From an uncultured virus (IMG/VR IMGVR_UViG_3300032038_000020) (taxonomy: Duplodnaviria > Heunggongvirae > Uroviricota > Caudoviricetes), in the IMG/VR virus record IMGVR_UViG_3300032038_000020, positions 62,001-122,517 of that record: a stretch of DNA of 60,517 nt; one strand, 5' to 3'. Below are positions 7,143-59,899 of the stretch, piece by piece. The translations under genes and the position numbers were made by a program. The notes beneath the pieces are model-generated. The model searched no databases, had not been told where the DNA came from, and saw nothing but the letters and a program-made list of their open reading frames with translations. The first letter of the stretch is position 1. Every line of letters starts with the position of its first letter.

Positions 7143-7790
7143 ATGGCTATGCTTTATACACTTGATTATTCTCCATTTAAGAAGCTTACACCAAGTCAGT
7201 ATAAAAAGGGTATACCGAGTCTGGACAGTTATACTGGTATAGAAGGACTGTTACAGTCGGTAAGACCAAAAGATCGTGAAGCTATCAGAACAGTACTCAC
7301 ATATGATCCATCGATCATATTCATGGATATCATGTACTATGCTGGTATTGGAACCAGTAATGGTATCGTCGTAGATAATGATACTATGAGACCATTACCT
7401 TACAATGGAAACAAGCTCATGAGATATCCTGCTGTTATCGGCGGATGCGGAAACATGAACATAGTCAACTTCGATCCTATCTTCAACCTTAAGATGATGG
7501 AGATAGTCTTCACTGTGTATATCACTAAGATATCTGCAGAGAGAAACATAAGCATCAAGTCATTCTATATATACGGACGTCAGAACCAACTTAAATCTGG
7601 TGAGTTGTGTTTAGACGACTATAAGGGAACTAAACTAGTTTCGGATCAATTCATGACTGATACTGTATGCTATATCAATCTGATGATGCAGATTGAGGGT
7701 GTAGACAGAGAAACAGCATACAATCAGTGTGCGGCTCTTGACAACTACATCGTTTGCTCAAAGAAGATGAAAGGACGTCATTATGAATGA
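7143..7790 (+). CDS. hypothetical protein
   Basis: 215 aa ORF, AGGAGG RBS. Confidence 0.8.
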   Translation: MAMLYTLDYSPFKKLTPSQYKKGIPSLDSYTGIEGLLQSVRPKDREAIRTVLTYDPSIIFMDIMYYAGIGTSNGIVVDNDTMRPLPYNGNKLMRYPAVIGGCGNMNIVNFDPIFNLKMMEIVFTVYITKISAERNISIKSFYIYGRQNQLKSGELCLDDYKGTKLVSDQFMTDTVCYINLMMQIEGVDRETAYNQCAALDNYIVCSKKMKGRHYE

Positions 7791-8991
7791 TTATGGATCA
7801 CTGAACACTAATCAGCGTAGAGTGTTCGACGCAGCTATGGAATGGTGGAAAGGTGCTCGATCTGAACCGTTCGAGATCTCTGGACCACCAGGCTCTGGCA
7901 AGACATATCTGATAAACACTATAGTCGATTACCTCGGTATAGCTAGAGAAAAAATAGCTCCACTCGCATACACTGGAGCGGCCGCAATCAATATGAGAGT
8001 TCATGGAATGGAGAACGCTAAAACTGCTCATTCATGGCTCTATCTTCCAGTAATGCAACAGCTAGTCGACGAAAATGGTAAACCTATCATAGATCCAAGA
8101 ACTGGTAAGCAAAAAGTGGTGATAAAATACGTCGAAAGAGAATCACTACCAGGTATAGATCTCTTGATAATAGATGAGGGTGGCACTATACCACCCAACA
8201 TGAGAGCTACTATAGAGAAACATCATATACCAACCATAGTAGCAGGAGATATAGATCAATTGCCACCAGTACATGGTAAGCCTGCGTATCTGAATGATCC
8301 CCGCAAGATTCACTTCCTAACGGAGATCATGAGACAGGCTCAGGATAGTGGTATAGTCTATATCTCTCAAATGGTAAAAGATGGAAGACAACCGCATTGT
8401 GGACTCTGGAAAGATGCGCTTGTCATCCATCGAAATCAGCTAACCTTAGATATGCTCTTAAGGTCAAAGATTATACTATGTGGCAGAAACGTCACTAGAG
8501 ACTATTATAATGACTTCATGAGAGCTACCTATGGTTTTGCAGGACAGCTACCAATGTATGGTGAGAGGGTAGTATGTCGTAAGAACAACTGGAATGTCGT
8601 CACTCCAGATGGAATCAATCTCACCAATGGTCTTTTAGGTATGTGTATAAATGACCCAAAGTATACATATGATAGAAAGCATGATTCTTTCGTCTTAGAC
8701 TTTGCACCAGATATGAGTACTGGTGTAACGTCTAATGTATTCCACGGTCTCGACTGTTCATACACATACTTCACATCGGATGCTAAAGTCCGTGAGAAAC
8801 TACGAAACGATCCCGAAATAAAGACTGAAAGATTTGAGTTTGGATATGCCATTACTACCCACATGTCACAAGGCTCTGAGTACGACAATGGTATATACAT
8901 AGAAGAATCACTCAACAAGAGCATAGATCACAAACTTAACTACGTTGGAGTTACACGCTTCAGAAAGTTTTGTATCTATGTAAAAGAGTGA
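7783..8991 (+). CDS. Dda/RecD-like SF1B helicase
   Basis: GPPGSGKT, IIDE, GDIDQLPPV, LTEIMRQ, YAITTHMSQGSEY, YVGVTR. Confidence 0.9.
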   Translation: MNDYGSLNTNQRRVFDAAMEWWKGARSEPFEISGPPGSGKTYLINTIVDYLGIAREKIAPLAYTGAAAINMRVHGMENAKTAHSWLYLPVMQQLVDENGKPIIDPRTGKQKVVIKYVERESLPGIDLLIIDEGGTIPPNMRATIEKHHIPTIVAGDIDQLPPVHGKPAYLNDPRKIHFLTEIMRQAQDSGIVYISQMVKDGRQPHCGLWKDALVIHRNQLTLDMLLRSKIILCGRNVTRDYYNDFMRATYGFAGQLPMYGERVVCRKNNWNVVTPDGINLTNGLLGMCINDPKYTYDRKHDSFVLDFAPDMSTGVTSNVFHGLDCSYTYFTSDAKVREKLRNDPEIKTERFEFGYAITTHMSQGSEYDNGIYIEESLNKSIDHKLNYVGVTRFRKFCIYVKE

Positions 8992-9013
8992 TGTATTCTT
9001 CTAACAAACTCAC

Positions 9014-9025
9014 AACAATATAGTA
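9014..9025 (+). promoter_or_regulatory. late-type promoter motif AACH-N6-TA (representative; about 18 copies)
   Basis: Plus copies at 655, 2909, 4150, 9014, 10775, 12572, 23711, 29546, 34224, 49965, 50781, 51151, 54409; minus copies starting at 7115, 22214, 23622, 25740, 28288; all just upstream of genes or RNAs. Confidence 0.75.
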
Positions 9026-9143
9026 TGGCGGTGCAGCTATGCACTATTAGACTCTCACAGCAGTTCTCTATGTTAAAATGGACAGTTATGAGTCTAGACG
9101 AGCGATTCTTTAAGAGTTGAATCTTAAGCAGTTACCGCCACCA
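9025..9143 (+). ncRNA. candidate tRNA-like structured RNA ending in CCA
   Basis: 5' GGCGGUG pairs with 3' UACCGCC followed by ACCA; internal stems UAGACUC/GAGUCUA and GAUUC/GAAUC; AACA-N6-TA motif at 9014 and hairpin downstream. Confidence 0.55.
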
Positions 9144-9147
9144 CCTT

Positions 9148-9173
9148 TCCGTAGTGGAAATGTCCACTACGGA
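9148..9173 (+). terminator. stem-loop (terminator or processing hairpin)
   Basis: TCCGTAGTGGA-AATG-TCCACTACGGA perfect inverted repeat. Confidence 0.6.
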
Positions 9174-9257
9174 TAAGTTGTCTTAAAACAACTTTTGGCT
9201 ACATATCATACCTTTGAGTCAAGAACAATACTAAGACTCAGAAAGGAAATCGAAACA

Positions 9258-9974
9258 ATGAGCGATAACATTGTAAACCCCTTTGGTATTGTGAATCCTG
9301 TATCTGGTGAAGTAACCGAACAGGAAGTTAATCCTACCAAAGAGGATCTCAAACTTATCAAAGAAAAGGAAAAGAGACTGGCAGAAGAGGCTAAGAAGAA
9401 CCTCAAGACAGTCAAAGTTGCAGATGGTACAGCAACAACTAAGAGACCTGCTAAGAATAAGAGAGCTCCACAGGCTCCAGTAGTAGCAGGTAAACCACAA
9501 CAGCAGAATGTTCCTCAGAAGCCTAAGCAGATACAGTCTGTAAAAGAGTATCTTGTGTGCTTTGTATTTGAGGGACAGGATATGACTGAACCAGACTGGA
9601 CACGTTCCAGATGGATAACTGCAGAAGGAAGAGGTTTATGCTTTGCTAAGACAGTAAGCATGATTCATGATATAACCTCTGAAAATGAAGACTTCTATGA
9701 TCCTATCGATTATGAGGAGTCATTCGTGTTATGCACGGGAGTCAAGTATGAAGAGAAGGTTCCGCTCCTTCAGTTCATCAGACTCTGCATCGAGAAAGAA
9801 GCCAAAGCAATAGACAAGTATATGCTTGACTATATGCAGGCAGTCCTCAAGTCATACGAAACTGGTTCGTTTGAACCTATTGACGAATGGGTCAAGGTTA
9901 ACAATGATACACCTTGTACTCCACAGGTTCAGCAGACCATGTATACATCACTTGAGGGTGAAGATATAAACTAA
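9258..9974 (+). CDS. hypothetical protein
   Basis: Start reassigned to ATG 9258 after GAAAGGA. Confidence 0.8.
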   Translation: MSDNIVNPFGIVNPVSGEVTEQEVNPTKEDLKLIKEKEKRLAEEAKKNLKTVKVADGTATTKRPAKNKRAPQAPVVAGKPQQQNVPQKPKQIQSVKEYLVCFVFEGQDMTEPDWTRSRWITAEGRGLCFAKTVSMIHDITSENEDFYDPIDYEESFVLCTGVKYEEKVPLLQFIRLCIEKEAKAIDKYMLDYMQAVLKSYETGSFEPIDEWVKVNNDTPCTPQVQQTMYTSLEGEDIN

Positions 9975-50766: not shown

Positions 50767-50791
50767 CATTACACAAGCATAACATATCATT

Positions 50792-50987
50792 GACGGACGG
50801 ATAGGATAGATAGTTTCAAGTCAGAGCCTCCTCAAGAGGTTACCACTCTGCGCTTACCGATACGTATTGCGGGTGTAAATCGTCCTGTTTGAGCAGCTTG
50901 TAACAGGTGACTATTGATACCCCCTAAGTGTTCGCTCGTGTCCTTAATAAAGCCATACTTGAAGCTATCTATCGTGTCCGCTCCGTC
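50792..50987 (+). ncRNA. candidate 6S-like rod-shaped RNA (196 nt)
   Basis: 5' GACGGA-CGGAUA-GAUAGAUAGUUUCAAGU pairs with 3' ACUUGAAGCUAUCUAUC-UGUCCG-UCCGUC; central open region; apical stem; starts at +1 of AACA-N6-TG. Confidence 0.6.
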
Positions 50988-51077
50988 GGACTGCAAACTA
51001 TTCCAAAATGATAACCCAACTTCAATTCTAGCATTGGTAAACCTTTACTCATGGTTTACAAAACATCTTAATACTCA

Positions 51078-59824: not shown

Positions 59825-59899
59825 TGGTTGGGGCAGCGGGGATCGAACCCACGGATGACAGAGTCAAAGTCTGTTGCCTTACCGCTTGGCTATGCCCCA
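59825..59899 (-). tRNA. tRNA-Gln(UUG) with encoded CCA
   Basis: Reverse complement TGGGGCATAGCCAAGCGGTAAGGC-ACAGA CTTTGAC TCTGT-...GGTTCGATCC...GCCCCAACCA. Confidence 0.95.

Follow-up and report, generated by a model that had tools for sequence, protein, structure and literature searches.

The gap between a helicase gene and the following ORF of an uncultured phage raises the question of what kind of RNA, if any, is made from it. An earlier note on this DNA had proposed that a tRNA-mimic RNA with an acceptor stem and an encoded CCA is transcribed here as a unit of its own. The gap is predicted to hold a gene without a protein, whose product is a candidate folded RNA of about 120-150 bases that belongs to no known family. 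It is concluded that, on present evidence, the tRNA-mimic reading fails, and that the RNA is a late small RNA candidate of no known family.

The stretch analysed (the window, 60,517 nt) makes up the second half of a virus record of 122,517 bases, here called G000, which is about 50% complete. The site lies between a RecD/Dda-like helicase and a 238-aa ORF, with a divergent DnaB and gyrase B nearby. Among cultured phages, the helicase is matched best by Staphylococcus jumbo phages and Bacillus phage AR9 (30-34%). In a complete relative, G001 (229 kb), a scan of 182 ORFs of at least 90 aa found split RNA polymerase subunits together with ThyX, a chaperonin and RNase H. On these grounds the source is taken to be an AR9-like jumbo phage. 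The ThyX gene suggests that the DNA contains thymine, although the promoters follow those of the uracil-DNA phage AR9. In G001, loci L124:487-1890, L125:11245-12579 and L130:1670-2512 hold ThyX, a weak match to tubulin and an anti-defence domain of the Tad2 type. The clade that carries the RNA has no cultured member. The features discussed below are listed in the table.

Table. Features of the small-RNA locus and its surroundings, in window coordinates (p, predicted pair probability).
Feature	Position	Strand	Remarks
RecD/Dda-like helicase gene, upstream of the small RNA	7783..8991	+	
AR9-type late promoter, AACA-N6-TA	9014..9025	+	inferred +1 is A9025; motif and start rule from PMC5312081
Folded domain of the small RNA	9025..9143	+	119 nt counted from +1; relatives have about 101-133 nt
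Leaderless frame from the AUG at +1	9025..9120	+	31 codons in the window; relatives have 10 and 7; not conserved as a gene
5' strand of the closing helices	9026..9038	+	P1 with 9133-9140; P1b with 9127-9131, A-A mismatch
Alternative 5' hairpin, GUGCA/UGCAC	9031..9044	+	predicted p 0.9-1.0 before the 3' strand is made
P2, two G-C pairs	9041..9042 with 9102-9103	+	can form in each of the three lineages, p 0.43-0.81
Long arm	9048..9096	+	P3 9048-9054/9090-9096; internal loop ACAGCA 9057-9062; P4 9063-9066/9080-9083
Apical loop, 12-13 nt	9067..9079	+	UGUUAAA invariant in three lineages
Optional arm P5	9104..9123	+	5 pairs in the window; no T-loop
A-CCA	9140..9143	+	found in two lineages of three; U9026 is a possible partner of A9140
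Perfect 11-bp hairpin	9148..9173	+	lacks a U-run; probably the 3' end or a stabiliser
Weak second hairpin running into four U	9175..9194	+	pairing partly kept in relatives
Early-type promoter of the next gene (AT-rich decamer, six bases, G)	9200..9216	+	17/17 identical in both other lineages
238-aa ORF, downstream of the small RNA	9258..9974	+	without Pfam or PHROG family
tRNA-Gln (UUG)	59825..59899	-	sole tRNA gene in G000, G001 and G002; encoded CCA; hairpin about 35 nt downstream

Promoters and hairpins around the RNA

According to the accessible text of PMC5312081, AR9 late promoters have the form AACA-(6N)-TA/G with the start at the last base, and AR9 early promoters consist of an AT-rich element, six bases and a G. 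The same late and early grammar is found in G000. The late motif is used genome-wide and stands at the 5' end of the RNA, as in AR9 late units. Of its noncoding matches in G000 with the N6 spacer, 27 of 36 lie within 250 nt upstream of a same-strand start; the N4 spacer gives 23 of 28, many of which overlap through TATA, and the remaining spacers give 4-14. The start at 9025 that had been assigned from this motif is a putative one. The motif is present, is identical at all 12 positions in both other lineages, and is enriched upstream of genes; however, there is no enrichment over the window as a whole (52 matches against 45.9 ± 6.5 expected, with 20 of 100 shuffles as high), and the promoter scores only 3.7 on a matrix made from 28 sites (training median 18.2, minimum 2.9), with +2 to +4 differing from the mRNA consensus. 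The early-type pattern, which was composed so as to admit the variant found at this locus, has 8 noncoding matches at the six-base spacer compared with 0-6 at other spacers.

The perfect hairpin that had been noted 3' of the RNA is confirmed. Among the 108 ORFs of G000, 51 are followed by a long enough gap and by a strong hairpin of 7-16 bp. These hairpins mostly start within 35 nt of the stop codon (39/51). Five U in a row follow only 15 of the 51; hairpins without a U-tract may serve the phage polymerases as stop sites or may protect the RNAs. The hairpin at this locus is of the gene-end type, yet it starts 156 nt past the helicase stop, with a promoter and the RNA in between. No separate hairpin for the helicase precedes the late promoter, so the helicase mRNA probably ends here as well. 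The hairpin lacks a U-run, and read-through is therefore possible.

The proposal of a stand-alone structured RNA unit is supported both by this anatomy, namely a promoter, a gene-end hairpin and a separate promoter for the next gene, and by the relatives. We read 40 helicase loci, of which the four close ones carry the RNA element. The other 36, with helicases of 39-52%, lack it; they mostly have gaps of 6-98 nt, and many have an early-type promoter alone. Because the element is missing from the same place in all 36 of the more distant loci, it looks like an inserted gene. Sixty-three distant helicase loci belong to other phage groups and were left out of the comparison. In several distant gut-type phages (L020-L043 and others), TAG interrupts the reading frame of the helicase when table 11 is used, which points to stop-codon reassignment.

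One of the 12 sequencing runs is recorded as RNA and makes up a small share. That run gave a contig of depth 3.14 over 8957-9431; the RNA-library evidence consists of assembled contigs, and hence carries no transcript ends, strand or level.

Predicted fold and its conservation

The pairing of GGCGGUG (9027-9033) with UACCGCC (9133-9139), which had been described as an acceptor stem, is present, with six Watson-Crick pairs and one G-U. The letters A and CCA do follow it, and the stretch does measure 117 nt when counted from 9027. With a transcription start at 9025, however, U9026 would pair with A9140 (p 0.76), and about five more pairs would extend the helix inward. The ends are thus predicted to form a closing helix of about 12 pairs and not a free acceptor arm, which disagrees with the idea of a free discriminator base. 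Nor is a 117-nt product expected from transcription as such, given that the primary transcript should pass the hairpin and run to about 9173-9195, which would make the CCA internal.

Two other elements of the earlier description hold. The GUGCA/UGCAC hairpin is predicted to compete with the end stem: predicted nascent folds contain the hairpin, which is then displaced by the closing helix, so that in the full RNA its pair probabilities are 0.00-0.07 (G7-C20). The UAGACUC/GAGUCUA arm is predicted with pair probabilities of 0.90-1.0. The GAUUC/GAAUC arm (9104-9108/9119-9123) is less certain, as the minimum-energy fold contains it and the centroid does not. Overall, the stability of 9025-9143 is modest (z -2.05, with 5 of 200 shuffles as good), compared with z -0.33 for the opposite strand.

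Three lineages were found in the collections, namely the window, L002/L070 and L001/L003/L077. Their helicases are 83-84% identical, with 73/131 and 77/130 identical four-fold sites (56-59%), and the lineages lie at nearly equal distances from one another (median identity of 89% and 87% for 87 proteins). The promoter, fold and hairpin are common to all three, and all keep one predicted fold. The ends remain paired despite a bulge (L001) and an insertion of 3-4 nt (L002) on the 3' strand. P3 has one compensatory change, from A-U to G-C. When aligned by structure, P4 has the pairs GC/GU/AU and UG/AU/AU across lineages; this register was chosen by hand, while MAFFT places a 4-nt gap there instead. 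P5 has seven pairs of different sequence in L002 and is absent in L001. The loops behave differently. ACAGCA and UGUUAAA are invariant and are unpaired or weakly paired in all three lineages, and 9025-9045 forms a run of 21 invariant bases that spans the 5' strand of P1/P1b.

Of 97 cells in the alignment, 97.9% are paired, against 21-39% when the partners are slid along, although the alignment was fitted to the structure and there are only three independent sequences. One pair has changed on both sides; in this set of four distinct rows from three lineages the covariation is not significant, with 114 of 500 shuffles scoring as high. The intergenic region is 83% and 78% identical, which is no better than many of the 34 intergenic regions of at least 100 nt, and the flanks of the RNA are as conserved as the RNA itself.

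Beyond these lineages no homolog was found. An RNA model run on 35 records matched in G001 and G002 only, and none of the 33 more distant records, which include 16 virus records of at least 90% completeness, yielded a homolog. A match in G030 (E 0.35) was rejected, as it lies inside a 356-aa ORF and breaks P4. The model gave no matches in 150 bacterial genomes, a search that lacks a known positive and so shows little. G000 has no second copy that could be found. The region had no blastn match among 50,697 phage records or among plasmids. A DNA-pattern search of viral contigs returned the same three records only; a looser pattern gave 13 stretches, 10 of which were rejected by the RNA model. 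A gyrase B query led to the same three records, and a query with the downstream ORF confirmed none. Closer relatives, with helicases of 55-81%, are known as proteins only.

Comparison with tRNAs and other known RNAs

In its G-rich 5' end paired to a 3' strand and followed, in two lineages, by A-CCA, the RNA resembles tRNA, tmRNA and YrlA-type Y RNA. It differs from them in having no elbow and no anticodon. The earlier note had itself remarked on the lack of a canonical T-loop or anticodon loop, and this extends to the relatives: none of the three lineages has a T-loop, a D-loop or a 7-nt anticodon loop. A T-arm with a UUCRA loop is found in none of the four sequences, and the candidate arm is absent in L001. 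An uninterrupted stem of 7 bp occurs in the window only. L001/L003/L077 have no CCA and a bulged U after the first three acceptor-like pairs, and in L002/L070 the seventh pair is G-A; N-CCA follows the stem in two lineages of three. Because stem and CCA are not kept in the relatives, the tRNA-mimic part of the proposal is given up on a ground that the earlier note had named for itself.

Searches with tRNA and RNA models agree with this. ARAGORN, from which a negative result had been expected, finds tRNA-Gln alone in the window when run with default settings. A relaxed run gave 253 predictions genome-wide, none of them on the plus strand at the site, and these were treated as noise. Rfam gave no family for the small RNA at gathering and E-value thresholds, and, with no tRNA-clan match at E values up to 10, gives no sign of a degenerate tRNA. 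The suggestion of a Y-RNA-like RNA fares no better, with no Rfam match for the RNA and no TROVE/Ro60 protein among the 182 ORFs of G001. The same scan found no RtcB, CCA-adding enzyme or synthetase families, so that the Y-RNA idea has no support from the phage side. Elsewhere, the leader of the G001 ortholog of the 9258 gene (L148:518-555, minus strand) gave a weak match to CRISPR-DR56 of 18.9 bits (gathering 35; E 2.5), which spans the leader hairpin and Shine-Dalgarno region, is absent in L150, and is probably due to chance.

How often a stem with CCA arises by chance was estimated in two ways. A 7-pair stem with at most one G-U, followed by N and CCA at 60-200 nt, occurs at 134 of 244,634 starts genome-wide. 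In shuffles of 9025-9257 it arises in 11 of 5000 at the first four bases and in 275 of 5000 anywhere. The combination is thus uncommon at +1, whereas its occurrence at some place in such a region is not rare. Given the end stem, only the CCA is left to explain, at 1.25% by composition.

A processed tRNA mimic, trimmed to G9027...CCA9143 and serving as a decoy for synthetases, RelA, T-box leaders, EF-Tu or anticodon nucleases, is very unlikely. P1 and P1b do make 7 + 5 pairs, the length of an acceptor-T minihelix, and the position of the stem-CCA at +1 is the uncommon one. T4 RNAC provides a precedent for tRNA-like phage small RNAs. The phage tRNA-Gln also has both an encoded CCA and a downstream hairpin, so the hairpin behind the small RNA does not exclude trimming. 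These points are set against the bulged or mismatched stems and missing loops described above. The presence of CCA in two of three lineages carries little weight, since the lineages are nearly equidistant and three bases at a background identity of about 85% are expected to be kept more often than not. Most likely, the CCA after the end stem is incidental.

Other phage RNAs are closer in general character, and those of T4 and phiKZ offer precedents for late small RNAs in phages. T4 RNAC and RNAD are small stable late RNAs of 139 and 119 nt, the function of which is not known in the accessible text of PMC9697503 and PMC12685909. They are like the small RNA in size, late timing and absence of a known function, but lie in a tRNA cluster, while the small RNA has its own promoter in a replication region. 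The folds also differ: RNAC ends in a canonical T-arm, which the small RNA lacks. No homology was detected when the RNA model was run on the T4 region with filters off (best E 0.81). The phiKZ ncRNAs, as described in the accessible part of PMC8545117, are about 100 nt (after PHIKZ298) and about 180 nt (5' of p40), and occur in protein-sized (low-molecular-weight) gradient fractions. By that description they are similar in being intergenic or UTR RNAs bounded by hairpins in a jumbo phage with its own RNA polymerases; they are UTR-derived and have two hairpins, whereas the small RNA has a dedicated promoter motif and an end-closing helix. The accessible text of PMC5312081 reports antisense RNAs and UTR motifs for AR9, and no stand-alone small RNA. 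Of the closest kinds, the available part of a 2026 review (PMC13282480) mentions the phiKZ ncRNAs only. A description of the small RNA itself was not found in the literature searched, which was mostly outside subscription journals.

Possible functions of the small RNA

We propose, with somewhat less than even confidence, that this is a late small RNA confined to one narrow clade of AR9-like jumbo phages and that its conserved loops bind a protein, the protein step being reached by exclusion. The pattern is that of a protein-binding surface, because the unpaired bases are invariant while the stems vary. Invariance of the 5' bases can also be explained by their double role in the hairpin and the closing helix. 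For the fixed loops, protein binding is the most likely function, given that there is no kept ORF, no kept antisense site in G000, no kept GGA, and no likeness to the promoter above background. The GGA count is 1, 1 and 0 in the three lineages, at different places, so there is no kept GGA of the kind a CsrA/RsmA sponge would have. Two other roles were considered and have no specific support. One is an R-loop replication primer, suggested by the replication neighbourhood and the RNase H of G001. The other is a packaging RNA, suggested by a resemblance in the three-way junction and the size of about 117 nt.

Several further readings were weighed. It is unlikely, if not strikingly so, that the element acts in cis on stability or translation, whether as a long structured 5' leader of the 9258 gene, whose early promoter would then stand in tandem with the late one, or as the 3' end of the mRNA of the helicase. 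In the accessible text of PMC5312081, some AR9 genes have tandem late and early promoters and AR9 5' UTRs measure 26-491 nt, and a late-UTR motif in its Fig. S3 may bear on the leader reading. The hairpin has no U-run, the RNA-library contig extends into both genes, and the fold is predicted to survive in both longer contexts. Moreover, predicted access to part of the Shine-Dalgarno region is 0.12-0.50 (eight positions) in the long transcript compared with 0.24-0.98 in the short one. On the other hand, the lack of a U-run is normal for this phage, a contig across the genes shows no single transcript, and relatives without the RNA element express the same two genes. An antisense RNA acting in trans, whose apical loop or variable arm would pair with a host, mobile-element or phage mRNA, seems quite improbable. 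A single-stranded loop of 12-13 nt with a kept sequence is a usual antisense seed, which counts in its favour. In G000, itself about half of a genome, 36 sites have at least 10 complementary bases, but of the 29 with orthologs in both relatives none keeps at least 9.

The two remaining readings are less probable still. In one, the RNA would be a 6S-like decoy of the phage non-virion RNA polymerase: the apical UGUU would copy the template-strand promoter element, and the two alternative folds that are predicted would be a 6S-type release switch. The AR9 enzyme reads the template strand of uracil-containing promoters, as reported in the accessible parts of PMC5449584 and PMC9209446, and UGUU is unpaired and invariant in all three lineages, while only 4% of genomic 12-mers contain it. 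This reading is nevertheless highly improbable. On the promoter matrix the RNAs reach 1.5-2.9, which lies within background (75th percentile 2.2, 90th 4.9), Rfam gives no 6S match, and G001 encodes ThyX, so that its DNA probably holds T. In addition, an insertion at 9073, within UGUU, is seen in one contig of low depth and may be an error. If true, such a brake would be a self-limiting switch of late transcription, of a kind not found for a viral polymerase in the literature searched. In the other, a leaderless mini-gene, the AUG at +1 would direct a short peptide or hold ribosomes. The AUG and seven codons are identical in the three lineages and the AUG is unpaired in most predicted nascent folds, yet the frame varies in length as tabulated, with a frameshifting deletion and no synonymous changes, and the AUG is predicted to be paired in the finished RNA. 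This is extremely improbable.

The preferred reading, a late protein-binding small RNA, can be put as a sequence of steps. From the motifs, the non-virion RNA polymerase would start at A9025 and run to the gene-end hairpin, giving a primary RNA of about 150-165 nt. The nascent RNA is predicted to form the 5' hairpin first, and to keep it until the 3' strand appears. It would then rearrange so that about 12 pairs close the RNA by joining its ends and shield the 5' end. The closed RNA would present the long arm together with the invariant unpaired segments AUGCACU (at the 5' junction), ACAGCA and UGUUAAA, and would act late in infection as a decoy or scaffold for one RNA-binding protein of phage or host.

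A second late noncoding unit was seen in the window at 50781-50990 (plus strand), with AACA-N6-TG, a start at 50792 and a length of about 200 nt. Its end helix of about 28 pairs is kept in G001 and G002, the interior being different and shorter in G002. It has no Rfam match, and its interior was not found in 400 bacterial genomes. The relatives have more late-promoter starts followed by long noncoding folded runs (L130:6318-6600; L135:7305, minus strand; L124:5224-5440; L120:9366, minus strand; L131:5872), which are candidates for more small RNAs or for long leaders. The clade appears to carry at least two end-closed late RNAs plus one tRNA.

For jumbo phages with their own RNA polymerases, few small RNAs have been described, and functions are lacking. 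The locus illustrates that an encoded CCA after an end stem can mislead toward a tRNA reading. Here the natural variants mark the fixed loops and a dispensable arm, and the RNA is short enough to be made in vitro, so that its partner could be fished for directly.
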